The notes: generated from the sequence alone by a model not told the origin. Counted from the stretch's first letter, positions 5,890-64,000 are shown. The stretch: 64,000 nucleotides of DNA from Picochlorum sp. SENEW3 (GCA_034226945.1 CP120453.1:434001-498000); one strand, 5' to 3'. Numbers and translations: made by a program.

Positions 5890-6618
5890 TCAGTCCCTTT
5901 TGGTTGCTGACTTCAAAGACGAGTTCTTCAGCCCACGAACAACTGTCAAGAGCACAATGATGGCTACTGCAATAGATATGTAGGAATAATATGCAATCTG
6001 CTGCTGGGTGAACTGCATGGACGATAGGCCAGCCAGAATGTCATGATACCATGATGGCTCTGGTGGCACATCCACTGGAGAGGAGGCAGTCTCCCATCCT
6101 GTGGTGATCCACGTCCTCATTTCCTGGAACACTCGTTCATCATCATACGTTCCCATACCCTTTGGAAGAATCCAATCTTTCACATACATGTTACGGTGTT
6201 GTCGAAACATGATCACGACAGGATGCCTCTTCAAAACCCGGCCCTCACCACCACCATTGTGGGGAACTACAAACTGCTCTTCAAATCTCTTCAATAGCCC
6301 CTTTTCCTTCTCCACTCGAGCATCAGCCACTATAATATTCTCTGATTCCAGCAAATCAGCTGCCAAACGCTTCCATACGGTGTCCGTTTGTGAGCAAGAA
6401 CTCAGAATGTCCTGTTGGCCTGCCTGGGCTTGTCCACCCGAACAAAAGCGTATCGCCCAAATGCCAGTCGTCTGCCCTGTCGATGCCTGTGTATCATGTT
6501 CAAATGTCTCATCTGTCAAGACGATGGGTTCAATATCGGATGCATCACTGGAACTCGCAAGAAGACAGGAAAAGAGCAGCAGTATGAGAGTGCAGTTGAA
6601 CAGCTCCATCAGTCCCAT
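5890..6618 (-). CDS. Membrane-anchored thioredoxin-fold protein lacking the canonical CXXC
   Basis: Signal peptide, LTDETFEHDTQASTGQTTGIW (TMX/PDI-like start), C-terminal TM and basic tail. Confidence 0.65.
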   Translation of the reverse strand: MGLMELFNCTLILLLFSCLLASSSDASDIEPIVLTDETFEHDTQASTGQTTGIWAIRFCSGGQAQAGQQDILSSCSQTDTVWKRLAADLLESENIIVADARVEKEKGLLKRFEEQFVVPHNGGGEGRVLKRHPVVIMFRQHRNMYVKDWILPKGMGTYDDERVFQEMRTWITTGWETASSPVDVPPEPSWYHDILAGLSSMQFTQQQIAYYSYISIAVAIIVLLTVVRGLKNSSLKSATKRD

Positions 6619-6810
6619 GGGTTGATCGATGTATATATATTGGTATCGTATGAATTAAGTAATGATTTAGATCCATCCCAAGGCAAAGAAAACCCATCTC
6701 CAGTTGCCATCATGGCATACGTTGCGAAGAAAAGAAGAATGTTGTATTTCAAATTTGAATTCAAAACTATTTGTTCCGAGACCAATCCGCGGTTGATCGC
6801 AGGATTGATC

Positions 6811-7623
6811 ATGGCACATTATTGGTATTGTGGCAAGCAGTACACGTATCAGCGCAATGCAGCCACAGATCATTCATCCATGACACGAATGTCTCGAAGG
6901 GAATTTTCAACGATGGTTGGTGCGGTGGGAAGGAAAGAGAGTATTAGATACTCTATAATTGATACGAAGGGCGACTTGGGGGTATTGAGACAGCGGATGG
7001 GGGCAGGCATGCCAAGAGCTGAGCAGGTGTATGAGCTCTCCATGGCATGTTTTGAGTGCGATGGGCGCTTGGATGGGGTCTTTGGTGGTCTAACTCCTTC
7101 TTTTTCTCTCAAGTATACCGTTGAGGAGGAACTACCATCGCCCATGGGGACCAGTGAGGTATTGAATGATAATCACATGCATCATCAAAGAGGCTATTTT
7201 GCGTGGACAAGAGAGCAGGTATTGGGCAAGATTGACCTGTCCATGAAGAACAGCATGGTCATTTGTGCAGCGTATGCAGAGGATGGTGATGAGAATGCAC
7301 TGCGGAGATGGGTGCGTGGACTCCATGGGGAGAGGCGTCTCGTTGGGTTTGGGAGAGCTGTGGGAGACACTGCGCTGGTTGCCACAGTCTGTGATGTCAT
7401 GGTGCACCCCTCCTATCGGCGGCGCGGGATTGGGAGTAGAATTCTAAGGAATATGACGAGGCACTTGGATACAGTGTGGGATATTATCGATGTAGGGGCT
7501 CCCGTGCATCCCGAGGCCATGCCGTTCTTTGAGAGTGACAAGGCACATTTTGGCCTCGACGATGAGGGGTCAATCGCCCTTCAATTACAGGTTCCTGCGT
7601 GCTTGGTCGATCATGCACCGTAA
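6811..7623 (+). CDS. GNAT-family N-acetyltransferase (start codon uncertain, 6811 or 6880)
   Basis: LVGFGRAVGD..LVATVCDVMVHPSYRRRGIG acetyl-CoA-binding motif A. Confidence 0.8.
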   Translation: MAHYWYCGKQYTYQRNAATDHSSMTRMSRREFSTMVGAVGRKESIRYSIIDTKGDLGVLRQRMGAGMPRAEQVYELSMACFECDGRLDGVFGGLTPSFSLKYTVEEELPSPMGTSEVLNDNHMHHQRGYFAWTREQVLGKIDLSMKNSMVICAAYAEDGDENALRRWVRGLHGERRLVGFGRAVGDTALVATVCDVMVHPSYRRRGIGSRILRNMTRHLDTVWDIIDVGAPVHPEAMPFFESDKAHFGLDDEGSIALQLQVPACLVDHAP

Positions 7624-7727
7624 TTCAAAAACCATACACGGAAAGAAATTGATTGATATCGAATGTATGGGATGCAGAGTTCGCCAGTGTCATAACAGAG
7701 CTTTCCGGAATACCTGAGGAGATTCAC

Positions 7728-8819
7728 ATGGCTGTTCGCTTACGACAGAGTGATAGGGTTCAAGGCCACAAAATCAAATCATTGGTGTGCACGAGGTTGG
7801 GGGATCCGTCGACGAGCATTAACTTGGTTGTGAAGTATTCGAATTCTGCGAGGGACGCACATGTTCCTCTTCCTCCCAATTGCGTGCGGATAAAAGTTAT
7901 CGCTGCTGCTCTCAATTTTGCAGATAGTCTTCAAATACAGGGTGTGTATCAGGAGAAGAAGAAGTGTCCGTTCATTCCGGGGAATGAGTGTAGCGGTGTT
8001 GTGTTGGAGGTTGGAAAGGATGTGGATCCAGAGCAGTCCACCATACATGTGGGCGATCATGTGTGTGCTGTGACAGATGGGGGTGCTTTCAGTGAGGAGG
8101 CTATAGCTCCCGCGATATCGGTAATCAAGGTCCCCAAAAGCTCAGATGTAGAAGCTGCAGCTGGCCTTCCAGTAGCATTTGGAACAGCATACATGGGTTT
8201 GTGTATGAGGGCAAAGGTGCAGCGTGGGCAGGTGGTACTGGTTCTTGGAGCTGCTGGCGGCGTAGGAATGGCTGCAGTCCAGATTAGTAAGCATTATCAG
8301 GCCAAGGTGATTGCTGTCGTCAGGGGTTCGGATAAAGCAGCCCTTGTCAGGGAGCTGGGGGCCGATGTGTGCATTGATACGTCGGGGGCATCGCATCCAG
8401 AGCATCTTGTGAGAAGTGAGGTAAAAAAGATTCTATCAAATAGCGGGGTAGATATTGTGTTTGATCCTGTGGGTGGCTCGCTGGGGTCCATGGCCTTCAA
8501 TCATCTTGTGCGTTTTGGGGGACAGGTCATTGTGGTTGGCTTTGCAAGCGGCTCTGTTCAAGAGTACAAATCAAACATAGCGCTTGTCAAAAATATTAGC
8601 ATCCATGGATTGTACTGGGGGGCCCACATGCATCACAAGCCTCAAGAGTTCAGAGAGAGTCTTTCAAAGGTTGGCAAGCTATTTGCCAATGGAGACATTC
8701 GAGTTCCAGTCAGCCACCAATATGCTTTAGAGCAGGCACAAGAGGCTTTTCAAGTGCTGAAAAATCGATCCGTGTCGGGCAAGTTGCTGTTTTTGCCAAC
8801 AAGGAAATCCATGCTGTGA
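7728..8819 (+). CDS. NADPH:quinone oxidoreductase-like, MDR superfamily
   Basis: ALNFAD, PFIPGNECSG, VLVLGAAGGVG Rossmann motif, DIVFDPVGG. Confidence 0.9.
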   Translation: MAVRLRQSDRVQGHKIKSLVCTRLGDPSTSINLVVKYSNSARDAHVPLPPNCVRIKVIAAALNFADSLQIQGVYQEKKKCPFIPGNECSGVVLEVGKDVDPEQSTIHVGDHVCAVTDGGAFSEEAIAPAISVIKVPKSSDVEAAAGLPVAFGTAYMGLCMRAKVQRGQVVLVLGAAGGVGMAAVQISKHYQAKVIAVVRGSDKAALVRELGADVCIDTSGASHPEHLVRSEVKKILSNSGVDIVFDPVGGSLGSMAFNHLVRFGGQVIVVGFASGSVQEYKSNIALVKNISIHGLYWGAHMHHKPQEFRESLSKVGKLFANGDIRVPVSHQYALEQAQEAFQVLKNRSVSGKLLFLPTRKSML

Positions 8820-9123: not shown

Positions 9124-11948
9124 ATGCCAAAGAGTCATAAACGCAAGAAAAACCCAGGTGTGGGGATTGATTTTAAAAGGGCGAAGCACAAGGTTGGAAA
9201 AAAGTTGCCAAAAGCTCAAAATGAGACTGACACAACGGTGAGGGCCTCGAGGCTTGTACTGGCAGAGCAGAGTGTGGCAGTGGACAAGAGTGGCGTGGCA
9301 ACTACTTCTCGCAACGTATCTCTCAAGGTACGCGGTGCTTACCTTCAGCATCGATTCGTATGTATTATGAGGGATGTGTGGTTGACAGATTGTGGAACAT
9401 GCAGGAATTGTTGGGTCAATGCCGGCATTATAGTGAAAAGGTACGCTTGAAGGCACTCCATGGTCTCACAGAGTTGCTGCGGGAGCATCCGTCCGAGGGG
9501 AAGATTCACGGTTCTGAGATTGTTGCCATGACAGCGGATAGAGCTGGAGACTCAGACGTATCTTGTAGGGAAGCGTATTGTACGTTTCTCAAGACTGCAT
9601 TGTTTCCAGTTCTTGGTGAGCATGCTTTGCAGCCCTTTTTGCCCTTGATGATGGGGCACATTTGCAGTGCAATGACTCATCTGAATCACGCCATTCGATC
9701 ATCTGGCATTGACATGATGAACATTGTCCTCGAATGGAGGCCGGATATCGTGGCTCAGAGGTATTTTTGTGAGATTTGCAAACATTTTATTGATTCACTG
9801 GGGAGATCTTCGCGGGGCAGGTCTCTGAGTGCTGGCTCCTTGAAGACACTTCTCAGCCTGGCAGAAGGGTGTCTGAAATTTTTGAAATCAACTCTGCCGC
9901 ATGTTCCGGGAGTATTTCATGTACAAAATGAAAATGTCATTCCACATGACAATGCTAATAATGTGGACTCTGCCAAGAAGGCTAGAAACAATAAGGAGAG
10001 TCGCAGCAAATGCATTGGGATGTCTGGGACGGTTTTGCTGAATGCCTCAAAGGGACAATGGGATTCTGCTAGAAATACAACGTTTGGTACGGCTACAAGC
10101 GAGGGGGAAGGGGATTCATATGTTCAGCATGCCGCCAAACTTGTAGTATTATTACTGGACTGCTGGGAGGAGTGTGGGTTGACTTCTCCAGATGGGGACA
10201 TTGGGAAGAGCGAGCGGGGCACATCCCCAGATGCATGTGGTTGTAGAATTCTAGAATGTTGCTCGCTTCTGATGGCCAGGTATAAGGCTCCAATTCTCAG
10301 GGATCCGTTGTATGTATCAACCATTTCCAACGGTATTCTGTCCAGAGTGTTTCCTTGTTTCCCGAATATTGGGTCCTCGAAAGGTGGCATTGGCGAGATT
10401 GATGCGGTAGCGGCGGACTTGATTGCACATATTATTTTACAATCTCGCGAGCAACCTGACGATTTTGAACATGAATTGATTGAGCAGGCAACAGAGAGAT
10501 TATTTGGGTGGTCCAAGTTTTGTCTGGATCAAAGTCATCATGACACAAGGGCATTCTCGGTTGGGATCAAGCTTGGTGGTCAATTGATCTATTGCTTGAA
10601 GGAAGATTCCAGAAACGAAATTTTGAGGTCGATCATGCATGCGTGGAAGGGATCGGATATTCACAGCAATGAAAGAAATCAAGGCCTCAGGTTTCTTGGT
10701 GCCATCCTTCGACCAGTCCTGACAGATCAAAGTGCAGATCGTGGCCTTTGGGATGGTTCTAGACAAGATTGTACCACAAAATCCATCGTCAATTCTAGAT
10801 CGGATGGAATTTTTGCAGAGTGGCTGTCTGATATCCCATCCTTCTTGTGGAAGCTTGGTACTAGTTCCTCACAGGCTTACACGTATGGCCTGGGACTGAC
10901 GGCCTTGTTGAACGCTTCAAGATTTTTTGACAATGGAGAATCAGTGCGTCTTCCAAACCTCAAATGTGAACTAGAATCACTGACGATGAAGATTGTGCCC
11001 CTGTTTGGGCTGAAAATGAAGAACAAATTGGTTCCTGGGCCCTTGGTACAGCTGCCTGTCCACGTGCAAAAGATGGCAGTTGATGTCCTGTATCATCTCC
11101 CAGGTCTGCACAAAAACGTGGTGCAGATGATATCACTCTGCATCGAATACAGAAATATGTATTCTTTCGATCTAATGGAGAGGTTGTTTGAAGTGATATA
11201 TTTTAAATCCCAGTATGGTGACCCAGAGCAAGTGTGGAGTTTCATTTATGGAGCTTTGAGGGGACCGAGCGTCTCAGATGCTTCCGTGAAGAACGGCAAA
11301 AAGAGCGCTTGTAATGATTGGAAGACTGACGTGTTCATCGTGGAGAGAGTCAGTCAAGTTGCATTGCATTGTAGCTCGCCAGCCATGGCTCTTCAAGCTG
11401 TTCTGCCTGCTCTCCTTGCCGAGCAATCACATTTGTCTTCAGTGACACAAAAGGCCAGGGCTGCATATGGAACGCTATTTTTCTGGAACAAGGCACTATG
11501 TATATGCCACCCTGTCGACATGAAGATTTCATCGACCGAGTTGATGACATTGCTCGATTTGAGCAGTAGCTTATCTTGTAGGCTTCCTGGCAATATCATT
11601 GACCAGGAGATGAGTGACCACCTGGAGAAGGCTTCTCGGCATGCAACAAGAAGTATGATGGAACATTTTCCTGATCAAAGTCTTCAGTGCATTGCAGAAT
11701 ACATAAATTCCTGGCACGAAGAGAGATTGCAATCAGTTGTTGCAATTTTGCAGAATCTTCAGTGGGTTCTAGATGGTGATCTTGAGGCCAGTTTTTTGGC
11801 TTCCCTCCAATCAGCGCCATCCAAGCACAAGGTGCAAATTGCTTTAGAAAATCTAATGTCGAGAAAAGATACGTCTGAAGAAGAGAATAACATTCTCATT
11901 GAACAGGTTTTACATATGTATAGGTTAATTATTATTGCTCCTCGATAA
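9124..11948 (+). CDS. TEX10: TEX10/Ipi1-like pre-60S Rix1-complex protein; exons 9124-9327, 9405-11948
   Basis: N-terminal DFKRAKHKVGKKLPKAQNETDT and 'ELLGQCRHYSEKVR' Ipi1_N signature; in-frame GT..AG intron 9328-9404. Confidence 0.85.
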
Positions 11949-50737: not shown

Positions 50738-52126
50738 CTATTTTCTTCGCCTATTTGTTGCAACATGCTTTCGTTCATTTGGATTCTTCTTCCACCCACT
50801 GTTTAGCAACGTAGCCATGCTTGGTGGTCCTCCAGCGACAGCAGCAACCTGGTGCCACGTCTCATCCGTGTACTCTGGTGCAAAAGGATCGAGCTGAGCA
50901 TTCTTTGAAGCCTTCTTAGACCTCAGTAAATGCTTCTTGGTCAACAATTGATCCTCGCGGAGGATGGGGTCATGATTTCTACCGCCCTTGGGTTTTGGGA
51001 GACTATACTTTGTTCCTTTCAGGATATGCTTCTTCCTCACTCCATACTGCTCAGCTCCTTCAGGGGAAATTGTCATTTTTACCTTGTCCAGCGTCGCATT
51101 CCCGCAACGAGGGCAAAATAATCTACCAACCTCCTTTGTCACCTGGTTACATGCCGTGCAGCGGAGAACCCATCGCGTCACAGACTGAATCTGCATACCA
51201 TCAGGCGCAGCAAGCCTGAGACCCATTTGAAGAATTACATTTTGCATCGCAAAATCAGCTGTCATGGAAATCACAGCACTTGTCCCTGCTGGATGGTCAG
51301 CAGCAAGGTCCTCCTCCTCGATATCACCATCATCTTGGTCACCCAAACTCAAAGGCTGCGCATCGTCTTCTTGGGCTTCAGCCTCTTCCCTCCTCTGTTC
51401 CTTCCTTCTCTCTTTCTTCTTCATTCTCCTAGCCTTGCCTTTATTCTTATACGCCGTCTCCCATGCCCCTTCGTCGTCTTCTTCTTCTTCATCTTCTTTC
51501 TCTTGCTCCTCTACTGCCGTGTGATCTCTTGCATCATCATGAGTGCTTCCCAGGTCCAACTGCTGCACATGTGCAGATACATGACTACCATCCTCACCTT
51601 GAATCAGAGCCTGTGCAGCCTCCTCCTCCTCCTCATTAATACGATCAATATCTGTCCAATCTCCTCCAGACACGCCCCACCCAGGAAGAGCCTTTTCATC
51701 AACAACAGGCTTTGTCAACATGGTAGGTGGAGCAGGGCGACTCCGTAAATGATCACTACCATAATAATCCACCTCAATCGTCCTTGCCAGCGCAATCAGA
51801 CCCATATCTATAGAGGAAAGAGCGTGCAAATCCCCCGTCTGTCGGGCGAATGCCACAACAGCCTTCATACTCTCCTCACTAGGCTCCCTTGTCTCTATAG
51901 TGAAGGGAAGGCTTGCCAGCGCCTGTCGAGACTCTGAATCCCGGATCTCATGAAGCACCTGAGGAATAGTAACGATAGTATCGTAATTCTGCTTCAAATT
52001 TAGCAACCCATTTCTCTGAATTATTGCATTCGCGTCGATAACTGCAACAGGCGACTGGTTGCATGTGCATGGGCCATCTTTCTCTTTGGCCGGCGGTTCC
52101 GCCTTTGCAATGGCAGCCCAATTCAT
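50738..52126 (-). CDS. NOB1: NOB1 PIN-domain 18S rRNA endonuclease
   Basis: VIDANAII, EIRD, FARQTGDLHALS, TADFAMQNV.LQMGL, zinc ribbon CTAC..FCPRCGN. Confidence 0.93.
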   Translation of the reverse strand: MNWAAIAKAEPPAKEKDGPCTCNQSPVAVIDANAIIQRNGLLNLKQNYDTIVTIPQVLHEIRDSESRQALASLPFTIETREPSEESMKAVVAFARQTGDLHALSSIDMGLIALARTIEVDYYGSDHLRSRPAPPTMLTKPVVDEKALPGWGVSGGDWTDIDRINEEEEEAAQALIQGEDGSHVSAHVQQLDLGSTHDDARDHTAVEEQEKEDEEEEDDEGAWETAYKNKGKARRMKKKERRKEQRREEAEAQEDDAQPLSLGDQDDGDIEEEDLAADHPAGTSAVISMTADFAMQNVILQMGLRLAAPDGMQIQSVTRWVLRCTACNQVTKEVGRLFCPRCGNATLDKVKMTISPEGAEQYGVRKKHILKGTKYSLPKPKGGRNHDPILREDQLLTKKHLLRSKKASKNAQLDPFAPEYTDETWHQVAAVAGGPPSMATLLNSGWKKNPNERKHVATNRRRK

Positions 52127-52325
52127 TGAGTATAAATGAATATTATACTTCAAAATACTACACTGCAGGATGGAATGGCAAACTGATGTGGGATTGTTGG
52201 TGATGGATTTCAATGCAGTCCTCATTTCTGGTTCCAGCTACTTGTGCCTCATTTCCATGGCATGGTTTTCTGTGAATGAGGGCAGCACCCCACACCTTTG
52301 ACGCATTAAATACAAATTTTACAAC

Positions 52326-54107
52326 ATGTCAGTCAATTTAGCCTCCAGGTCTACTCTTGTATCCCATTGTGGTGACAGGAAAGGGCAAGAGAAGAAATGT
52401 GTGGCAGTGGGAACGAGGAGAAAACAACAGCCACGTGGTACTACTCGGTCTGCCCGTGTGGATGAGTCGATCAATGTAGATACTAGAGAACCATCAGATA
52501 CGTTCCATATTCCAGAGTTGAATCAGGAGACATGGGAAAATTTTCTAAAGCCTTACAAGTCTTCATACGAGGAGCGAGCTTTCGTTATCGAGAAGGATAT
52601 GATTCAGGGAGAAATTCCAAAAGAGCTGCGAGGGTCATTGTTGAGAAATGGCCCAGGGCTCTTTGAGATTGGGGGAGAGCCCATTCCTCAGCCGTTTGAT
52701 GGAGATGGCAAGGTGGCCATGTTTTGCTTTCCAGGAGGGGAAGACAACAGACCCTTCTTCTCGACGAGATTTGTGAGGACCAAGGCGTTTGTGGAAGAGC
52801 AGACGGCAAATAAGATGATATACCGAGGGGCGTTTAGTGTGGGGAATCCAGCAGGAGGTTTGTTTTATAACCCATTTGACCTGAGCGTGAAGCAGATTGC
52901 CAATACTGGGGTGGTTCATTGGGCGGGCAAGATTCTCGCATTATATGAGCGGGACTTGCCGTATCATTTGAAGAACGAAGACCTCAAGACGTTGGGAACA
53001 ACCACGCTGGATGGAGCCATCGATGAACCATATTTTGCAGCACACAACCAGATTGTATCCATGCCAGATGGATCAAAAAGGCTGGTGACCTTTTCTGCAT
53101 CTGAGAGGGGATTAGACAATAGAATTGTTGTGTGGGAATTCGATGAAGATGGAAAACAAGTGGCTCGAATCGAAAAAACGCTCCCAAATGCTGCCTTTGG
53201 GTTTTTCCATGATATGGCAGTGACGGAAAAGCACTACATCTTTGTAGAGAATCCAATACGGCTGGACATGAAGAAATTCTTATTAGAATACATGTTTGGA
53301 AAAGCATGTATTGCCGAATGCCTGCAATTCGTCCCATCCATGGATACAAAGATTCATGTGATACCCAGACCCTGTGGAGAGGGTGAGGAGGAGTACAAGG
53401 TATACACCTGCCCCAGACCATTCTTTACATTCCATCACGTAAACTCATTCATCACAAGTACCGGTGACATTGTTTTGGACACGTGTGCATTGCATGAGGG
53501 AATGGACTTTAGCGCAAATTTGAAGACAACTGATGTGTCATATTACAATAAGAATGTTGGTAGGGGAGCATTTACTCGTTTGCATATCAATACTGCATCA
53601 GGGGTCGTGTCAGAGAAGAAAATGATGTATAGAGCATGTGATTTCCCTTGCGTGGCACAACAAGTAACAGGAAAGAAGCACAAACATGCATACGTGTATG
53701 GGTCAGCTGCTGATCAAGAGGATCTTTGGGGACCACCCCAGGTGATTAGCAAAGTCTCATTCACTTCTGATGATGAATCAGTTTCTCCCAGCGTCCAGCA
53801 GACTGTATTCCACCCAGGGAGAAATAAATGGGCCCAAGAACCAATCTTTGTTCCACGAGATGGTGCAACAGAAGAAGACGATGGATGGGTGCTTGTGCTT
53901 GTGTACGACTCGGACGCCGATACGACAGAACTGGCCATACTTGATGCAAAATCGATGAAGGCGGAGGCCACCATCAAGCTGCCATTCATGATACCTGCTG
54001 GTTTGCATGGATCATGGACACCAGAATACCTGGGCAGCAGACCAGAGGGTGACCCTGAGAATTCTCGATTCGAATACGACATCAGAAATGGCGTCGATTA
54101 TTTCTAG
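52326..54107 (+). CDS. Carotenoid cleavage dioxygenase (RPE65 family)
   Basis: LRNGPG, FDGDG, ANT, four Fe-ligand His (AAH, FHD, FHH, GLHG), EPIFVP, EDDGW. Confidence 0.92.
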   Translation: MSVNLASRSTLVSHCGDRKGQEKKCVAVGTRRKQQPRGTTRSARVDESINVDTREPSDTFHIPELNQETWENFLKPYKSSYEERAFVIEKDMIQGEIPKELRGSLLRNGPGLFEIGGEPIPQPFDGDGKVAMFCFPGGEDNRPFFSTRFVRTKAFVEEQTANKMIYRGAFSVGNPAGGLFYNPFDLSVKQIANTGVVHWAGKILALYERDLPYHLKNEDLKTLGTTTLDGAIDEPYFAAHNQIVSMPDGSKRLVTFSASERGLDNRIVVWEFDEDGKQVARIEKTLPNAAFGFFHDMAVTEKHYIFVENPIRLDMKKFLLEYMFGKACIAECLQFVPSMDTKIHVIPRPCGEGEEEYKVYTCPRPFFTFHHVNSFITSTGDIVLDTCALHEGMDFSANLKTTDVSYYNKNVGRGAFTRLHINTASGVVSEKKMMYRACDFPCVAQQVTGKKHKHAYVYGSAADQEDLWGPPQVISKVSFTSDDESVSPSVQQTVFHPGRNKWAQEPIFVPRDGATEEDDGWVLVLVYDSDADTTELAILDAKSMKAEATIKLPFMIPAGLHGSWTPEYLGSRPEGDPENSRFEYDIRNGVDYF

Positions 54108-54580
54108 TACATCATGATGAACTATCATTGTATTGTGACGAATCATTGAATGAATTAGTAATCCATTTTTAATGCATGTGAAACTCATTGCAAAACTTTT
54201 GCTGACAAAAGGAGAGAACAATCCCATAGAGGCCCCAGCATCTGATTCCTGGATGATGAGATGATACATCATCTTCAGTATGATGACCATCATGGTACTG
54301 TTTGGATGATACCAATACACCTCCTACCGTGCTGAGGGCATTCAGATTTTCATGGACCCCAATGTGGGTTGTTCACATTCATCATCACCTGCAGAAACAG
54401 TTGTAGATGGATGGCTTGAACGAATATTATCTCAGGATTCAAGCTCAATATCAGAGAGACGTGAATATATATTTTTCTTATATCGAACCTGTAAATTGTG
54501 ATACAGTAGTATGCACTGATGTTTGACAAGTCGGTAGAACCGGCAGCCCTCGTTCAAAGGTGATCGATGGATGCGGCTTT

Positions 54581-55438
54581 ATGACGAAAGATATCAGAGA
54601 TACAAGTAAGAAGAAAATAAAGATGGGTGAATCTGAGGCATCAGAGGCCGTGTCAACGTTTCTGGATCGGATAGAAGTTGCCAAACCTGGGACTTTGCAG
54701 AGTCTCGTCCTGACAAAGGAAATTAAACGAACAGATGAGCACGGTAGGGTTCTCTTTGCACAAAGAATGATTCGTGCTGAGAAATATGATGTCGACAAGG
54801 CCGTCAAGCGGGCTATTGATCATTCTGTCTGGAGAAAACAAGTGCTTGGTCCAGAGGGCAGCATACCTGATGACCATGTGCGAGAACAGTTGGAGGAGGG
54901 AAAGGTGTTTTTACAGATAGAAACGAGATCCAATAGACCATTGCTCTTCGTTCAGGTGAAGAAACACAGCCCTAATAAAACGGATCTGGAGGTTTTGAAG
55001 AAATTTGTGGTCTACTCATTGGAAACAGCCACCTATTTCCTTGACAGCCCCGAGTATGGGAATCCAGATGGAACCATGGATGTATTATTCGATATACGAG
55101 GAATGACGTGGGCAAATTTTGATGTGGCAGGGTTGAAGAGCAGTTTCACTGTGCTGGCTCAAGCATTTCCAGAACGAATACATAAAATTTACATGCTTGA
55201 CCCCCCGTATTTGTTTGATATGATTTGGAAGATTGTGAAACCATTTGTAGACCCTGTGAGCAGAGAAAAGGTGGAATTTCTTCACGGAGACAAGGGTGTG
55301 GAGACGCTCAAGGATGCCATTGGAGAAGAGTACCTGCCACAGGAGGTGACTGGGCTGGACACAAGGCCACTTCCCATTGACCAGGCCATGCGCAAAGTCA
55401 CGAGTGAGTCATGCGTTGTCCATTCTTCTCTCGAATGA
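54581..55438 (+). CDS. CRAL-TRIO/Sec14 lipid-binding protein
   Basis: RMIRAEKYDV.KA, W R, FPERIHKIY..DPP..F..IWKIVKPFVDPVSREKV. Confidence 0.88.
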   Translation: MTKDIRDTSKKKIKMGESEASEAVSTFLDRIEVAKPGTLQSLVLTKEIKRTDEHGRVLFAQRMIRAEKYDVDKAVKRAIDHSVWRKQVLGPEGSIPDDHVREQLEEGKVFLQIETRSNRPLLFVQVKKHSPNKTDLEVLKKFVVYSLETATYFLDSPEYGNPDGTMDVLFDIRGMTWANFDVAGLKSSFTVLAQAFPERIHKIYMLDPPYLFDMIWKIVKPFVDPVSREKVEFLHGDKGVETLKDAIGEEYLPQEVTGLDTRPLPIDQAMRKVTSESCVVHSSLE

Positions 55439-55754
55439 ATGGTACACCCTTACAGCGATCGATAATAATGTATCATCATCATCATGTATAGAGCATTCTG
55501 TGCATGGATTGCAGAGAAGAAGAACAGCGGTATCCCCGAGGGGCTGAATAGATCGAATTCTATGTAAGATATGTAATGTTAGATCTTGTTGAGATATCCA
55601 AATAGTACAAGGTGCTGAGTTTGAAGAGATCAGGGGCAAATCGTTCCAATCCAATTCGATCCAGCAACTGATCATACCAATCTTGCCTTGAAGCATCGAT
55701 TGATCTATATATTTGGTTCCATAGAAGCATATAGTTGACTCAGACAGCGATAGG

Positions 55755-56430
55755 ATGACGCCGCCGCCTCAACTGCCGAGTGTGTTGGTCATTGTCGGTC
55801 CCTCTGGCGTTGGGAAGGGTACCCTGGTGGACAAGCTATTGGAGGGAAATGGGGATAAATACGGATTTTCATGTAGTCATACGACTCGAAAGCCACGCGA
55901 GGGCGAGCAGGTTGGTTGAGCGGTGCTTTTGTCGTCCTGGAACATGAGTTTGAAAAGGTGTTGTGTCTCACATCCAGTATGTCTTGCAGGATGGCGTTCA
56001 TTATCACTTCACATCCAAGGAGGACTTTGAGCGTGGTATTGAAGAAGGAAAGTTCATAGAGTATGCCCATGTGCATAATAATATATACGGAACATCGTTT
56101 GATGCAGTCAAAGCTGTGCAACAGTCTGGGAAATGCTGCATACTGGATATTGATGTGCAAGGTGCTCGGCAGGTGCGCGCCTCGGACCTGTCAGCTATAG
56201 TGGTATTTATTGCACCCCCTTCCTTGGAAGAATTGGAGAAGCGTTTGCGTGGAAGAGGTACCGAGTCTGAAGAGCAGATTCAAGTGAGGTCGACACAGGC
56301 CAAGGTGGAGATGGATTCATTACAAGAAAAGGGGCTCTATGATGCTGTGATTGTGAATGATGCTGTGGATGATTGCTTTGAAAAATTGAAAGATATAGCC
56401 GAGATTGCATTGAATGGAGGCCACCAGTAA
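55755..56430 (+). CDS. Guanylate kinase; exons 55755-55910, 55990-56430
   Basis: [45 protein letters not shown]. Confidence 0.95.
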
Positions 56431-56784
56431 ATATCTGTTTCCACCCATCATCTCTTTCTTTCTTTTATTTTACCCGTGTGCCTCATTATTTAATAATAAT
56501 ACATTATTATTCCTGTGGTAATCATGAGGATTACAACTACACCCACCCAGTACCGCGCCGCGTCAGATTCGCCCAAAATCAAATTTCCACTCTCGCAGAC
56601 ATTTAGACATGAGCAAATTCACCCAAAATCTCAAATATTCGCAGATTTAGGATCAGTACAGCAATAAAATATATGATTGATCATGGTTCAATCCGTTAAT
56701 ATACAATATTACAATCAAAACATCGACATATATATGATGCATCATGGCATATGCCCGCATGGAGTGGAAAGAGAAGAAGAGATC

Positions 56785-59700
56785 TCATTCTGTCCAACCA
56801 CATCGCCTCTTGAATTCTGTTCTGCCTTCCGCACTCAAACCCATGTCATCCATGAGTTCCTCCATTTCTTCATTTGTTCTTTTTCCATGCTTGTATTGTT
56901 CTATCTCATAGATAAGCCACTTCCCTAGACCGAACTTCCGTGGTCCATTCCCATCGTTGAGATCATATTCAGCATTCCTTTCTGCCTCGGTTTGTTGGGG
57001 GGTTTCGCTGAAATCGACATCATTCTGATGCAGTCTCCTGCGCTCCCTGAGAGCTTGACGCTTCTCTTCGCGAACCTTGGAATTCACACCCCGTGTCCAA
57101 GTGCGAGATGAATACAAATCCCGAAGCACATACCTGCTTCCCTCTCCAATATGAGAGAACTCTTTTCTGATGACTTCTCTTCGCTTTTTCTTGTCGTACA
57201 TATGTGCCACATCGACAAATCGTGAGGAATCATCCAATTCTGACAAACCCAGCGTTTTCTTGATTCCTACAAGCATCCTTTCATTTCCCCAGTATGCCTG
57301 CTCATGAATCTCGCCAGTACCTTTGTCTTCAAATGTTCCCAAGAACCAGATGACGTTAGTTGGGAAAAATCGATCCTCATCAGCATTATCTTTTTGATCA
57401 TCCACATCTTGTATGACAATCTTGTCCTGTAGGCGTTTTGGGATTCGCCTCTTTGTTATCCATACTCGCCTGACCGTCTCTGGAGAAGGAATCTGCTCTT
57501 TTGGAAATTCCATCTCTCGCATTGTATTCACGATTTTTCCACCGAGTTCTCTAGTACTCTCTCCAGTGACAGTCTCTTCCTTGCCATTATTGGAAATGAT
57601 TGCTCTTCTTCGTTTCCCACGAGATAGGGCAGTATTCTCCCCATTGGTTACCACTCGAAGATTGTCTGATCGATTCAAACCAGTTTGGCCATTGATATGA
57701 TCGACATTTAGCTTCTCTATGGCACCGTCATCTCGCCTCCAGACAGTCTTGATCTGAACCCCATCTTCATCTGTGCGCCTGGCAATGTCTTCAAGTTGAA
57801 ACTTGTGGAGGAATTTTTTAGAGAGCTCGCGTTTCCCAAGTACTGCAGCGCACAACTTTGTGAATGCTATGGCACATGAAATATATATACTTTCTCCCGC
57901 AATGCGCATCCCTCTGTACCTATTCCTTTGTATAATGTCCATGACATCAGCCAGGAAATACCACCCATCACCATACTTCCTCCAGATGCATTGTTCCTCC
58001 TCAAAGAAAAGGACATTTGTGCATCTCACAACGTCAACCCACTTTTCAGATAAATTCGGATCATCTAATTTCCAGTTGTCTCCATCTTTTTCTAGGCGCA
58101 CCATTGGCAAACCAGTCTCCCCGAAACTGTCCTTGCATCTCTGAGCAATGGCCTTCCTCTCGTTAGACAGATGCTTGAATTGAGTGTAGCAAACCTCCAG
58201 ACTTTGCCCTCTAAAAGTCTCCCGAGAGCGTGGTCGTTTATTATTCGCCTGTTGCTTTGCATCAGCAATCCTCAAAAGGGAAGGTTGATTATAGGATGCT
58301 TGGATGGTGAGGTGGTCGGTACTCATCCCTGGCCCACATTTCTTAAGGAATTGAGATGGAGTCCACCCATATTTTGCCATGCCTACCACTTGATGTATTT
58401 TGAACAGCTTGCGTACTTTTTTTTTTTTGGATTTAGCAGCGATAAAAAATTTCGGGCGCAATTGCCCGGTGACGGGAATTCCCAAAGAGTCACCTTGTGA
58501 ATTGATGCACCGGCCCTCAGTAGACACAAACACGTGGGAATCATCTCCAATTGGCACACTACCGAAAAAAAAGTCTTGATGGAGCGTATAGCGCCATTGG
58601 ACACCACCATCTGTCGTATATTGCCTAGGCAAGAGCACATGACTAGCATACGTCCCCGTAGCGTTCAACTGTCGGGAGAACTTGATTGCCTCTGGAAATA
58701 CTAGCACTCCGAGCAACCTTTCTGTACTCATCTTCAGCCCCTCTTTAACAAATTCATACAGATGAATACTTTCGGGAAAGATGTGTTCATACTTTGACGG
58801 AATGACTTCATTCTCCTCGAAGTGGCGGATTCTCCATCCAGGGCCAATATGGGGTTGCAAAAAATCTTCCATGCACTGTGTGAAAGATTGCCTAATGTCT
58901 TCCAATGTCTTTTGCTCACTGCCTACCTTTTGCTCGATTGCTCTCTCAAGTGCATCGTAGAGCCCCTCGACGCCGTTTTCATACTCTGAAGCAAGTAGAG
59001 CAATCAAAGCCATTGAAAATTCCTGCAACTCGTCATCCAGACAAATCTCCTTTGTGATTTTGACCACCTCTGGAATGCCTTTCGAATCCACATATTCTTG
59101 ATTTTGGAGATATCCCTTTTGAAGTTTGTAATGCTCCATCAAAGGGATTTTGATGGCTTCATCAGCTGAAGCAAATATCTCATCTGACGCATCACTGGCT
59201 GAAATGACGGTATTCACATCAACCAGTCTCTGGACTGCAGCGCTTTGTCTCATCTTCCTCGAACATGCGATGAGACGGTCTTTAAAATTGTCTATTTTCC
59301 CAGAGCAGGTACGCCTAATAAAGTCTGATAAATAATCGAGATCATTCAGACCTTTCTCGATGATGCTTCTGTTTTCGCTATTTAATGTGCATAAATATGC
59401 CTCTTGAATGGATGCTGCTGTGTTTCCCTCTGATGATGGGTGAATATCCTTACTACCAGATGCCGAATCAGAGCCGACTACATCTACAACAGCATCAATA
59501 GTATGTGAATGAATGTGCCAAGAGAGATACACATCTCAATGTATGTACCGAAAACATACATCATAACAACAACATACCTTGTTCTCTATTGCCCCTACAG
59601 CCAAGGACAGGAGCTGTCTCCTTCTTCTTGGGCTTGGCAGATGGCTTCCTTTTCAATGGTCGCTGAGATGAATTCTCCTGTCGATTTGCTGAGGCCATTT

Positions 59701-60093
59701 GTGACCCAGCGTTCTGCACGATATTCTCCTCATCCAAATCTGAAGGCTGGGAGTCTGGAATCACAGTGGACCACGCGGGTGCCTCCTGTAAAGGTGCCTT
59801 CCTTTTCCTTGTCATATGGCCATGCTGCACATCACATATTTGATCGATCAGGCACATGTGTTCTACACAATGCAACATTTGCAAGAATCATCACAAGCAA
59901 TGAAACGCACCTTTTGCACTGCTGCTTTTGTCCCATTTGTACCAGACCTGTGTGCATCTACAGCTGCTGTAGACGCCCGCTTAACATTCCGGCTACGCCT
60001 GACATCCCTAACCCTCTTACCCTCCACAGTCCTGGGATTCAAAGGCTGGTTGGTAGCCTTTAGCTTGGCAGGTGGCTTCCTTTTCCTTGTCAT
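56785..60093 (-). CDS. Large (~1042 aa) NUMOD4/tandem-HNH endonuclease-like protein; predicted exons 60093-59911, 59824-59578, 59483-56785
   Basis: VDHINGQTGLNRSDNLRVVTNGEN (HNH_3-like); second degenerate IHQVV..TDHL..N..LR.AD..QQ..NK; VSTEGRCIN (NUMOD4-like); exon phases 0 and 1 give 3129 nt in frame. Confidence 0.7.
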
Positions 60094-60515
60094 GTGGATA
60101 GGCTGCACATCACATATTTGATTGATTATACATTATATATCTATATATGTTTTGCAACACAAGCAATCAAACGCACCTTTTCTCCACGATGTCTCTGGGC
60201 ACTATTGCAGTAGCACTATTTGAGCTTCCCAAGCATGCAATGCTGTTTGTACAGTACAATTCTCTATTACTGCACATATACACATATTCGGCGTGATACA
60301 ATTGAAAGATAGGTGCTTTTTAGACATGATCAAGAAAACAAGACAGTTTCGCGACGTAGCAATTCAACCATGACTCACCTGCTTATCCGTTCACCCTCAG
60401 GGTGATTGCAAACATAAAATAATACTAAATACATCCAATTTGACTGCGCAATACCCGCTGTAGCGATACTATACAAAATATCGCGATTGCGTCATCGCAG
60501 ATCTAAACCTAAATA

Positions 60516-60802
60516 GTAACCGGCAAGTAACCGGCAAGTAACCGGCAAGTATCCAGCAAGTAACCGGCAAGTAACCGGCAAGTATCCAGCAAGTAACCGG
60601 CAAGTAACCGGCAAGTATCCAGCAAGTAACCGGCAAGTAACCGGCAAGTATCCAGCAAGTAACCGGCAAGTAGCCGGCAAGTATCCAGCAAGTAACCGGC
60701 AAGTAGCCGGCAAGTATCCAGCAAGTAACCGGCAAGTAACCGGCAAGTATCCGGCAAGTAACCGGCAAGTAGCCGGCAAGTATCCGGCAAGTATCCCTGC
60801 AA
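60516..60802. repeat. Tandem 11-bp minisatellite GTA(A/T/G)CC(G/A)GCAA, 25 full copies plus one degenerate copy, with 33-bp higher-order period
   Basis: Directly read: A,(AAB)x4,(ACB)x2,AAD,ACD with A=GTAACCGGCAA, B=GTATCCAGCAA, C=GTAGCCGGCAA, D=GTATCCGGCAA. Confidence 0.98.
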
Positions 60803-61196
60803 ACTGCGTTGACTCGATGTCCAATAAAGGTGCCACCCATCCTCCAATATTTTCGGAAATAAAAACATGTTCAAAATCTCCTGTATATAATCGCGATGCC
60901 AAAGGCAACATTTTCGCCTTTTTCATCCTTCAGCGATGTGCCCAACGTGACCAGATATCGTCGAGCGAAGTGGAAGCCTTTCCGAGTCCATGTTACGCAT
61001 GTTTCCGGCCATAACAATATCTCCAAATTCACAAACACGGTCCACAATGCTACAAACCATGACATACAGAAGCAGACTCGTTGCGACCATGACATCGACG
61101 TGAATGTCACAGCCTACCCTCTTGGCCGAGAACGATCGAGTCAGTTTTGATATCATATCAACACATGCATCTCATAGTGAAGATTCGAGCGCATAT

Positions 61197-61272
61197 GGGG
61201 CTTTCTGACACTCTTTGCTGACGACAAATGTGACATCTCTCCTCGCTGCAGAATAGAGTGTCAGAAAGCCCC
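61197..61272. repeat. Perfect 18-bp inverted repeat with 40-nt spacer
   Basis: GGGGCTTTCTGACACTCT (61197-61214) / AGAGTGTCAGAAAGCCCC (61255-61272). Confidence 0.95.
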
Positions 61273-61489
61273 GCGAATTCTGATGCTTTTCCCCGCTCTC
61301 CCCGTTAAGTTTGTATTTTATTCTTTACAGAATTGAATGGAATAGCAAGGGATCGTGGGAAAAGACAAGAATGCATGAGATTTCTCACTCGGATGATGAT
61401 TATCACTACCATCTTGCAAGATTCTTGATCAAGAATGGTCATGACCAATTGATCAAGATCCATCATGACCATGATGGGTTTTCTCTCTC

Positions 61490-62551
61490 TCAGGGATCTT
61501 GGGACTTCTGGAGGTTCAGATCTGTAGTATCGAATCTATACAGCCCTGTTTCATCGGTTCTGAAATGTGGTGCATCCCCAAAATCTAGAGCATCAACATC
61601 TTGTGGCAAATCCACCACATCCTCCCAAAAAATATCATCATTATTACCCTCCATACGAGTAGGTACTCTCGTGTCGTGAGTAGGATCTGAATCTGTAGGA
61701 GGTGCATTCGCTCTGGTATCCACCGGTTGACTGTTGCCTTTGCATGGTGGATTTGTATTATCATCTATCTCCCTGACAGGCTCCTCCATCTTTGATCTCT
61801 TATCATTTGATTCCTCGATTGTTGGATCTTCAATCACACTAGAAGCTGTTAAAAGATCATACTGTGCATTTCTTGCCTCCTTTAGTTTCTCACATTTAAG
61901 TTCTTTGCCACTACGGATAGTCCTCAACATCTCTTGCAGCCCATCACTCCAGTGATACACCTTCCTGAGAGGTTCCCCTCTAGAGCTTGTATGGCGTTGG
62001 ATCGAGGCCATCAGCAGGACAAGGAGGCATACCCGTCGCAGCCTTTGACTTGGGCCTGTGGTACTGAGACATCTTTGCAGACACATGAGTGCGTTTGTAG
62101 CTTTCGCATTGTTTGCAAAATCTTCCCTCATCTCCTTGATGAGGCGACTCTTATGAATCGCATAAAGTATGACTGTGTCGCAGTTCTTCTGTGTCTTGGG
62201 CCTGTCTGCACAGATGTCGAGATCTGGACTCTCCTTTGCGACCGATCCGATGAATACTTGATTGACCCCTTGCACTGAGACTGGGACTGGACATTCAATT
62301 TTAAATGCCATATGTGGCGGAGTAGTCGTGCCTTTCTGAAATTGCCTCATATCCACGAGATTCTCGAAGTCATGCCCACACATAATTCGAATCTCATTCG
62401 GTTGCATGGAGGAATTCTCAGAAGATCTGTTGTCACAGATCTTCCCCCTCACATGTTCATCAAACTCACCGCAACATATCTTATCGTAAAGATCATCAGT
62501 AGCCCAAGCGTTTTCACTGTTTGAAGACTGATGCATGTCGATTTCAAGCAA
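61490..62551 (-). CDS. Orphan hypothetical protein (~350 aa; start uncertain)
   Basis: Uninterrupted ORF with an acidic low-complexity tail; no recognised domain. Confidence 0.55.
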   Translation of the reverse strand: MLEIDMHQSSNSENAWATDDLYDKICCGEFDEHVRGKICDNRSSENSSMQPNEIRIMCGHDFENLVDMRQFQKGTTTPPHMAFKIECPVPVSVQGVNQVFIGSVAKESPDLDICADRPKTQKNCDTVILYAIHKSRLIKEMREDFANNAKATNALMCLQRCLSTTGPSQRLRRVCLLVLLMASIQRHTSSRGEPLRKVYHWSDGLQEMLRTIRSGKELKCEKLKEARNAQYDLLTASSVIEDPTIEESNDKRSKMEEPVREIDDNTNPPCKGNSQPVDTRANAPPTDSDPTHDTRVPTRMEGNNDDIFWEDVVDLPQDVDALDFGDAPHFRTDETGLYRFDTTDLNLQKSQDP

Positions 62552-63405
62552 TCAGTGGCTTTGTGCTGGCTCGATACCAAACTTGCTCGTGCGTGTGAAC
62601 GAGTATACACTGCATTGGATACATGTTTAATTATCAACATAATATATTATTCAAAAGCAAAAGAATACTCTGTGAATAATGCATCATTTCCCAGCTTGTG
62701 GGAAGTTTCGCGAGAACCAGAGAGGTGCGTACCAGACTATCCTTATGGAAGCAGCAGTTGATTGTGATTGATATCTTCTATACATATAATTTTAAAGGGT
62801 ATTATTGCCTCTATGAAATGATTGATAGTATTATAGTAAAATAAAACACAAACCATCTTCTGGAGTGGATGATGGTGTAATAGATGCTCGTGTTGATTTG
62901 CTGCATGAATGTCATGCAAGGTGTCGGCCTTTGTTCAGAAGGACACATTATTCGGGAATCGATCAAATAGCATGGACAAGACTACAATACCACGCAGTAT
63001 GCGTGCCTCCAATTCATATATTAAACAATAATTCTCTCAAAATAGTAACTGTTTATCGTCATCTCCTTTCTTCTCGTCGAGAGTAGCAGAGGAGCATATC
63101 GAGAGCAGAATATTCAAACCCAGCGGAAGTCAACCTTCAACCGAAACTCATGTACGTGCGATCATATGTCATTAGTATCACATACATATGACATATTGGT
63201 GTATATATTTCGCTAGAATCTGTTTTATCACTACAAACGGTTTCAGCCGTACCGAACTGCGAGCGACATCTTGATCAGACTGAATTCTATCACAACCGTT
63301 CCGCGGCGTATTCCATCTGATTTCTGATAATTTACATGTATAATATTCTCAATATGTAGAGGAATATCAAGAAAGATTGATTGCAACACGTGCTACTCCT
63401 CCTTT

Positions 63406-63927
63406 TCATACTATATACCTCAGGAACATGTCATTCTGATGAATAGCTTCTGTAATGAGCGATTGCTCTCCTTCACTCCCGTATATAGTACCGCGAGAAA
63501 GAAGGGATGCATGCCGCTCTGACAACTTGCCAAGGTTTCTCTTCCACCGATTGTTTTCAAAGGATGCAATGAATGCATACTGCATCATTGCATGCGTAAT
63601 ACGCCCCAACGCCATACGCTCTTCTTCTTCTTCTCTCTGTATAGGTGTTTCATGTCGACTGTCTGAGGCGTGTTGTTGCGCATCCTTGTTGTTGTCACTG
63701 CCGTGTTGGTCTTCTTCTTCTTCTTCTTCTTCTAGTCCTGCGTCGTGGTGGTGGCGCTGTCGTTCGTGGCTGTCGTCCTCATTGCTAGGTATTGTTGGAT
63801 TTTCTTTTGCAAACGTCACTAAATGCTTCTTTTCTTCGTCTTCTGATGCCATGTATCCATGTAATAATGAAATCTCTTGCGCTACTAGTGATTCATGGAA
63901 TTCAAAGTTCGAATTCGAATGGCACAA
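63406..63927 (-). pseudogene. N-terminal fragment resembling carnosine N-methyltransferase (N2227-like); catalytic domain not found downstream
   Basis: EEERMALGRITHAMMQY..ENNRWKRNLGKLSERHASLL..AIHQNDMFLRYIV; no RDWS/VPGAGLGRL exon seen in 62550-63400. Confidence 0.5.
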
Positions 63928-64000
63928 ATACTCCCTCTGGGTACTGTTTCTACAATGTATATTATTTGCAATACTAATGATGATGCCGATATTGATTGTA

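Follow-up and report, generated by a model that had tools for sequence, protein, structure and literature searches.

We analysed a 64,000-nucleotide (nt) stretch of nuclear DNA from Picochlorum sp. SENEW3 (GCA_034226945.1, CP120453.1:434001-498000), here called the window, with positions counted from its first letter. The window lies on the 1.58-Mb chromosome, the largest of 12. Its left 56 kb is densely coding, and Pfam identified the three open reading frames (ORFs) scanned immediately before 56.4 kb as host genes (RPE65-type dioxygenase, CRAL-TRIO and guanylate kinase). To the right of these genes lies an island that contains a spliced gene for a tandem-HNH protein, an 11-bp tandem array, a strong hairpin and an orphan gene. 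An earlier interpretation of this DNA (the sequence-only reading) had proposed that these parts form one selfish or virus-derived unit. No similarity was found between the island and the other 56 kb of the window.

A spliced gene for a tandem-HNH protein

The largest gene of the island was resolved by matching an annotated SENEW3 hypothetical protein of 1094 amino acids (aa) to the window DNA. The ORF at 56785-59532 (minus strand, 915 aa) is 100% identical to this protein and represents the last of five exons. The sequence-only reading had already recognised a spliced minus-strand HNH gene, and its estimate of about 1040 aa was close. The gene and its parts are as follows:

56785-60434, minus strand: five-exon gene for the 1094-aa tandem-HNH protein (exons 60434-60381, 60271-60173, 60102-59911, 59824-59579 and 59478-56785, including the stop codon)
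57631-57744, minus strand: second HNH motif, HNH_3 (Pfam) and I-HmuI-like, with D790, H791, N799, N803 and N812 unchanged across the three closest family members
58234-58323, minus strand: first HNH-like module, a degenerate beta-beta-alpha unit that retains D585, H586 and N610 without conservation of the middle Asn; the model has a strand-strand-helix at ORF residues 404-430
58483-59385, minus strand: conserved N-terminal family domain, a helical bundle with a curved beta sheet in the AlphaFold2 model
59579-60181, minus strand: Lys/Arg-rich upstream exons 3 and 4, in which an exon-plus-intron unit about 278 bp long is duplicated (direct repeats D2, D7 and D8, protein sequence and exon map)

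The Lys/Arg-rich upstream exons contain runs that resemble nuclear localisation signals (NLS), and their composition suggests that the protein may be targeted to the nucleus. The intron between exons 2 and 3 carries a 16-nt insertion behind position 60157 in contigs of two public runs (X1 and X3); this reflects either an indel peculiar to some copies or a mistake in the copy that was assembled.

Contigs of four public runs (X1, X3, X15 and the RNA run X17) were placed on positions 52000-64000. Contigs of X17 lie on 57135-59062, within the HNH body, and on 61074-61297, at the hairpin, and there is X17 depth over the array as well; such contigs reveal neither strand, ends nor continuity. No X17 contig lies across 61624-64000, where contig cover proves nothing on absence.

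A nuclease half with a giant-virus-like fold and a new N-terminal domain

The second HNH motif scores 24.2-24.6 bits against Pfam HNH_3, just below the gathering threshold of 24.8, and the same motif in five relatives scores 27.5-38.4 bits, above that cut-off. The family profile aligned it to the phage nicking endonuclease I-HmuI (1u3e; E 0.0042). Both this profile and an alignment of three sequences show the D-H general base and the Asn ligands of a beta-beta-alpha-metal site, and the AlphaFold2 model places a strand-strand-helix in the HNH region. Judged by these residues, the second module retains all catalytic and metal-binding positions. The first module gave a faint match to phrog_3593 (E 0.0016). 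The tandem arrangement described in the sequence-only reading is thus confirmed in part, with an HNH_3-like second motif and a degenerate first one.

The AlphaFold2 model of the 915-aa ORF has a predicted local distance difference test (pLDDT) score of 64.8, and a Foldseek search of it against the PDB returned no solved structure at E<=1e-3. For the nuclease half, BFVD gave 28 matches at E<=1e-3, nearly all to HNH endonucleases of giant viruses with some of phages (best 5.2e-7). These included PBCV-1 Q98474 (1.3e-4) and EsV-1-119, and the matches span 330-700 aligned columns. The nuclease half is therefore predicted to fold like the free-standing HNH homing-type endonucleases of giant viruses. 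Among the island genes only the HNH gene has viral-like fold matches; the other scanned island ORFs belong to no family.

The N-terminal 300 residues, modelled alone, reached a pLDDT of 84.8 and a predicted template modelling score (pTM) of 0.85. No known fold was matched in Foldseek against the PDB (best E 0.058) or in VIA-align against 48,161 chains (best Z 3.6); these searches gave weak NTF2/cystatin-like rows only, at Z 3.6 or less, and an Atlas search returned nothing. The model therefore points to a new domain with no known fold. The whole HNH family is very small: a search of 1.84 billion representatives yielded 34 proteins at E<=1e-3, of which 9 reached E<=1e-30.

Copies, variants and breakpoints

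Four features frame the variation of the island:

56644-56708, unstranded: left edge of the repeated, variable region, 77-140 bp past the HNH stop codon; the single-copy X1 contig stops at 56643, and loose ends lie at 56661 and 56667 (X3) and at 56708 (X1 and X3, with identical letters)
59581-59583, unstranded: breakpoint between modules, 3-5 nt away from where exon 4 meets intron 4; X1, X3 and the RNA run X17 all have loose ends here
61349-62568, unstranded: 1220-bp block with the orphan ORF; one form, at single-copy depth, lacks this block (X1 joint 61348->62569, depth 62.6, side 49)
62552-64000, unstranded: right part of the raised-depth region, X1 depth 142-193 versus 62 in the left flank; contains ORF 63406-63999

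In X1, the left flank (52000-56643) is covered by two long contigs with 0 differences at a depth of 62-63, so this run derives from SENEW3 or a near-identical strain. From about 56.65 kb to the window end, the X1 cover is split into pieces of 405-764 nt at a depth of 103-167, and the listed island pieces carry 35 differences in 3118 nt. Difference counts here and below cover listed pieces only, 32 over the four runs (8 of them X1), with a further 500 outside the counts. X1 bin sums over 56.4-64.0 kb range from 108 to 449, with the maximum over the HNH 3' end (56812-57212). We read this as about two to three copies for most parts of the island and more for some. The available part of the genome report describes 12 chromosomes of 0.77-1.58 Mb, about 5% repeats, few duplications and a very low heterozygosity of about 7 single-nucleotide polymorphisms (SNPs) per 100 kb (PMC11092101). 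Because heterozygosity is that low, the island variants are taken as copies and not as alleles.

The variants are joined differently at several points. Other copies either follow the HNH body as far as 59581 or follow the upstream exons starting at 59583, before they diverge. One further copy retains sequence across the exon 4 / intron 4 junction (loose ends at 59581), which points to DNA-level copying. A form in X1 skips 60486-60856, which includes the array, at a depth of 58 and with just 27 letters on one side; the form without 61349-62568 has 49 letters at its joint. In several contigs of X1, X3 and X15 the array sequence runs into flanks that differ from those of the window.

Among the listed pieces, the strains differ less in the island than next to it. 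In X3, the island pieces listed have 27 differences in 2991 nt and the flanks 79 in 4470 nt; in X15, the corresponding counts are 38 in 2343 nt and 55 in 2201 nt. The listed island pieces thus diverge less between strains than the flanking host genes.

The sequence-only reading had placed the right end at 63400, bordered by a truncated host gene. As the stretch 63406-63999 is also at raised depth, the right end of the island is beyond the window and not at 63400. The supposed truncated gene is a minus-strand ORF that is merely cut by the window end and continues past it; its Pfam match to PIP5K is weak (E 0.028). Inside this ORF, (TCT)n runs at 63620-63733 encode a Glu-rich acidic stretch on the minus strand; reads falling on these runs were passed over as repeats. 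A sharp fall in gene density had also been proposed. Stop-to-stop ORF cover does fall, to 0.55 at 60-64 kb versus 0.71-0.99 in the rest of the window, but the drop is modest, not sharp. The guanine-cytosine (GC) content of the island is mildly lower, at 0.39-0.49.

HNH relics in SENEW3 and related genomes

Two C-terminal relics of the HNH gene are annotated in SENEW3, of 205 aa (P0008) and 98 aa (P0009). Each is 73% identical to the HNH protein, and both end at the same C-terminal stop. One lies on the window's chromosome, about 430 locus tags away, and the other on the chr09-10_n2 sequence. Picochlorum renovo contains two N-terminal relics, of 309 and 497 aa. In a related genome, a further N-terminal relic (locus L001; 408 aa, 41% identity) is set between ordinary host genes. 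This locus contains no tandem array and no similarity to the parts of the island other than the HNH gene, that is, no hairpin and no orphan gene. Two ORFs flank the relic there (6306-8114, 602 aa, and 10144-10956, 270 aa), with no Pfam family and no similarity to the island.

We considered whether the relics arose by 5' truncation as in long interspersed nuclear elements (LINEs), or as retrocopies. This was rejected, as the relics of the relatives are N-terminal, one copy spans the boundary of exon 4 with intron 4, and the shared 3' edge is not followed by an A-rich tail.

The array, the hairpin and the orphan gene

Four further features lie upstream of the HNH gene:

60515-60793, unstranded: minisatellite, 11 bp x 25.4 with a higher-order unit of 33 bp; it ends 81 bp before the annotated HNH start codon, and most units contain CCGG
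61197-61272, unstranded: strong hairpin with 24-nt arms (61197-61220 and 61249-61272), 92% complementary with the first 18 nt perfect, and a 28-nt loop
61425-61471, unstranded: palindrome-rich repeat, 24 bp x 2, 19 bp downstream of the orphan ORF stop codon
61490-62551, minus strand: lineage-specific gene, a 353-aa ORF (348 aa from the annotated start at 62536)

All four had been noticed in the sequence-only reading, as a 25-copy higher-order array, an 18-bp inverted repeat, a palindrome chain and an orphan ORF, and each was recovered here. At period 11 the array has 25.4 copies with 88% matches, and at period 33 it has 8.5 copies with 97% matches; a two-unit pattern matched 24 times in the array versus 0 in 100 shuffles. 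The 11-mer is absent from the rest of the 64-kb window, and the array is absent from the viral contigs searched. Between copies and strains the array varies, with a joint at 60485->60857 and loose ends at 60536, 60581, 60642, 60741 and 60972-60974. A tandem unit of 10-100 bp with variation in copy number or presence defines a minisatellite, and the array has both properties. It is best explained as a hypervariable minisatellite in the upstream leader of the HNH gene. Minus-strand ORFs of 121-144 aa run through the array (60492-60926), which is open in all three frames because its higher-order unit is 33 bp. One such array-spanning ORF matched a Pfam 'phage holin' family; this match was discarded as a repeat artefact, as no single stretch passes.

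The hairpin folds as RNA at -47.4 kcal/mol (z -5.9), and none of 200 shuffles folds equally well. The Rfam and tRNA scans found no tRNA, and their sole Rfam match was the hairpin itself, below threshold. This match, to the microRNA precursor mir-3167, reached 33.8 bits against a gathering score of 86 and reflects the hairpin shape only, so we rejected it.

The orphan protein has no Pfam or PHROG family match and no relative in the viral contigs. It is predicted to be disordered, and its Atlas model (pLDDT 0.32) has no usable neighbours. A paralogue, PSENEW3_00002961, lies on the 1,133,345-bp chromosome and is 98% identical up to a frameshift near residue 312; the 90% cluster of the protein also includes a 98% copy on an environmental contig, and a full-length relative of 74% identity was found elsewhere. 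On the strength of these three relatives, we regard the orphan as a real, conserved gene present at multiple loci.

Separable neighbours or one unit

In the model put forward by the sequence-only reading, the HNH nuclease binds or nicks the array or the hairpin, which would serve as an origin, as iterons or as a mobilisation site, with the orphan gene as an accessory. The parts are indeed adjacent, and the HNH and orphan genes share one orientation. The array stands 81 bp before the start codon and its unit is about as long as one helical turn, RNA-library contigs cover array, hairpin and gene body, and the depth is raised over the whole stretch. However, there are forms without the array or without the orphan block, and the array also occurs with other flanks. 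The annotated orphan paralogue and the two HNH relics bear locus tags that are unrelated in all three cases, and they lie on separate chromosomes or at a great distance from one another. At L001, the one paralogue locus readable as DNA, the relic stands alone, with neither array nor hairpin nearby, and the 11-mer is found neither elsewhere in the window nor in viral contigs. We therefore consider a single co-adapted unit highly improbable, and much of the original one-system claim fails. The best explanation is that array, hairpin and orphan gene are separable neighbours and not parts of one machine.

Other elements of the sequence-only reading fared better. The components are not single-copy, as there are several copies and relics. 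The island is also not ordinary single-copy host DNA, as shown by its raised depth, its variability, the pieces on other chromosomes and the giant-virus-like fold; the part of the claim that does not stand is the one functional unit. As had been stated, Pfam and the repeat scan found no transposase, reverse transcriptase (RT), HUH domain or terminal inverted repeat. The Pfam scan covered 17 of the 22 ORFs of at least 80 aa within 56.4-64.0 kb and found no transposase, RT, HUH or recombinase domain. The left edge showed no terminal inverted repeat; with the right edge outside the window, this result covers one of the two ends. Giant-virus hallmark genes (capsid, PolB, packaging ATPase) were not found among the scanned island ORFs, in a window that extends to 64 kb only.

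Candidate explanations: a selfish HNH gene, a host locus or a centromere

The reading that we prefer, tentatively and with slightly less than even confidence, is that the island is a low-copy (about 2-3x), polymorphic, duplicated nuclear segment, and that its core is a selfish, virus-like HNH gene adapted to the nucleus, without forming one co-adapted system with its neighbours. The gene would be fitted to nuclear life by its spliceosomal introns and NLS-like Lys/Arg-rich upstream exons. Its copies suggest a pattern of birth and death: a single copy is intact, a different upstream exon precedes at least one further near-identical body, and truncated relics occur both at other loci of the genome, where they are old, and in related species. 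The protein may nick or cut a cognate DNA site, upon which repair would place DNA-level copies of the gene, with variable stretches of its flanks, at new sites. The hairpin and the orphan gene would be neighbours that were duplicated along with the HNH gene and that can be lost separately. Homing endonuclease genes follow a cycle of invasion and decay. As the intact copy, the second body, the relics and the lower divergence of the island between strains match such a cycle, the evidence favours a gene that is selfish or was formerly so. 

Several observations weigh against this reading. The viral link is one of fold alone, with low template modelling (TM) scores of 0.08-0.17 of the query. A search of 2.9 million viral contigs revealed no relative of the HNH family, and tblastn gave no match in phage records. 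Long intron-free relatives (885-1464 aa) on contigs of 3.6-5 kb resemble transcripts of other eukaryotes, and such relatives would fit an ordinary conserved cellular gene equally well. Neither a cleavage site nor an empty site or target duplication is defined; contigs diverge at 56661, 56667 and 56708, of which the first two are hints only. Relics are C-terminal in SENEW3 and N-terminal in its relatives, with no consistent polarity of truncation. Depth is one figure per contig and sums all look-alikes at >=90% likeness. The 90% cluster has one annotated HNH protein in the range of 503-1602 aa (1 member, 1 contig), which means that the additional near-identical body seen in the reads was left unannotated, was collapsed or is missing from the assembly.

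It is quite possible that the gene is simply a domesticated host gene and that its duplications are of an ordinary kind. In its full form, this explanation holds that the locus is an ordinary host locus, where the HNH protein is a long-domesticated cellular factor that processes or binds DNA, the copies are segmental duplications and pseudogenes, the array is neutral, and the hairpin and orphan gene are unrelated; we regard it as a serious alternative, although an unlikely one. The introns and NLS-like exons are as expected of a host gene, and the contigs that carry the relatives of 885-1464 aa have the size of transcripts, which suggests that other eukaryotes express such genes. A host locus would also account for separable modules and for the absence of a transposase, RT, terminal repeat or viral-contig relative. 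Yet the genome is repeat-poor according to the available part of its report (PMC11092101), and it contains at least four further partial or whole HNH copies, with relics in two related genomes. For a conserved cellular factor, the family has extremely few members, and the listed island pieces are less diverged between strains than the flanking host genes.

The island could also be a chromosome-structural repeat that belongs either to the largest chromosome's short regional centromere or to another repeat cluster shared between chromosomes, with the genes as passengers. The part of the genome report available gives one Hi-C centromeric 10-kb bin per chromosome and describes no sequence for it (PMC11092101). 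The island is at least 7.3 kb long, gene-poorer and common to at least one other chromosome, and locus-tag arithmetic would place it about 24-42% along its chromosome. HNH-like sequence is also known from the subtelomeric Suber repeats of Chlamydomonas, according to the part of that study available (PMC8287924). However, a repeat present at all centromeres would be expected at a depth of about 12x and not at the observed 2-3x, one HNH relic is found some 430 genes further along the same chromosome or before it, and the GC content is just mildly lower. We regard a centromeric or other structural repeat as very unlikely. A subtelomeric location of the island is unlikely, as judged from locus-tag arithmetic alone.

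A bolder version of the selfish HNH gene is one that we consider doubtful. It would be an undescribed nuclear selfish element of green algae, namely a free-standing tandem-HNH gene with introns and nuclear targeting that still spreads copies of itself and of variable flanking DNA between Picochlorum chromosomes by nick- or break-induced repair, with the phased array as docking or control site. In a variant, the shared blocks would mark or seed the short Hi-C centromeres.

Comparison with known nucleases and repeats

The closest comparison for the catalytic module is with I-HmuI and the phage HNH_3 (PF13392) homing endonucleases. The second motif aligns with the I-HmuI catalytic core, D-H...N...N is kept, and the Pfam and PHROG HNH matches fall there. 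Unlike these enzymes, the algal protein is 5-8x larger, nuclear and spliced, and has an extra degenerate HNH module and the new 300-aa N-terminal domain. No NUMOD or AP2 module was detected in it by Pfam, and it has no intron or intein context.

The free-standing HNH genes of giant viruses (PBCV-1 Q98474, EsV-1-119, pithovirus, marseillevirus and klosneuvirus) are the best structural matches to the algal nuclease half, and they are multi-copy selfish genes in viruses that infect algae. In contrast to them, the algal gene has no sequence relative in the viral contigs, its TM-scores are low, it has introns and extra N- and C-terminal regions, and the island contains no hallmark gene.

In yeast, HO is a homing endonuclease that was domesticated in the nuclear genome; it is LAGLIDADG- and intein-derived, single-copy and has a known host role. 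The algal gene would resemble HO as a nuclease of selfish ancestry that is a nuclear gene with nuclear targeting, whereas it belongs to the HNH class and occurs with several copies and relics. To our knowledge, homing-type nucleases in the nuclear genomes of eukaryotes are found almost only in ribosomal DNA introns, in inteins or as single domesticated genes.

Among repeats, the array resembles other minisatellites with higher-order structure in its 11-bp unit, its 33-bp higher order and its variation in length and presence, and differs in its position just upstream of the HNH start codon. Some copies of the Suber repeats of Chlamydomonas reinhardtii carry HNH-like ORFs, as described in the accessible part of PMC8287924. 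Suber repeats are tandem units of 1.5-2.5 kb at chromosome ends with telomere-like tracts, whereas the island is interspersed, at least 7 kb long and probably chromosome-internal; the two are set apart by description.

In the parts available of the literature on Picochlorum and Trebouxiophyceae HNH genes, endogenous giant-virus HNH genes and Nucleocytoviricota HNH_3, we found no description of this family or locus. The novelty lies not in a new system but in the setting of an HNH homing-type nuclease gene, which is unusual in being nuclear, spliced and accompanied by several relics, and in its new N-terminal domain. If our preferred reading of a selfish HNH gene is true, this 13.75-Mb repeat-poor alga offers a compact case for the entry, spread and decay of virus-type nuclease genes in a eukaryote. 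As Picochlorum is a production strain in development, a native site-specific nuclease and a map of unstable duplicated segments or centromeres would be useful for its engineering.

Further observations around the island

Two short pairs of direct repeats flank the left edge of the island, at 56564-56580 / 56614-56630 and at 56669-56686 / 56730-56747. Their units are 17-18 nt long and 88-89% identical, with spacings of 50 and 61 nt.

In the guanylate kinase gene, an X17 contig skips 79 nt with GT..AG ends within 55906-55986, which indicates a spliceosomal intron. With this joint, the 155-aa guanylate kinase ORF is the last exon only.

Half or more of the sampled words of the island were present in 13 of the 24 public runs listed, which come from several studies (marine, 'gut' and other metagenomes). 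Near-identical Picochlorum DNA that bears the island is therefore widespread in environmental data.

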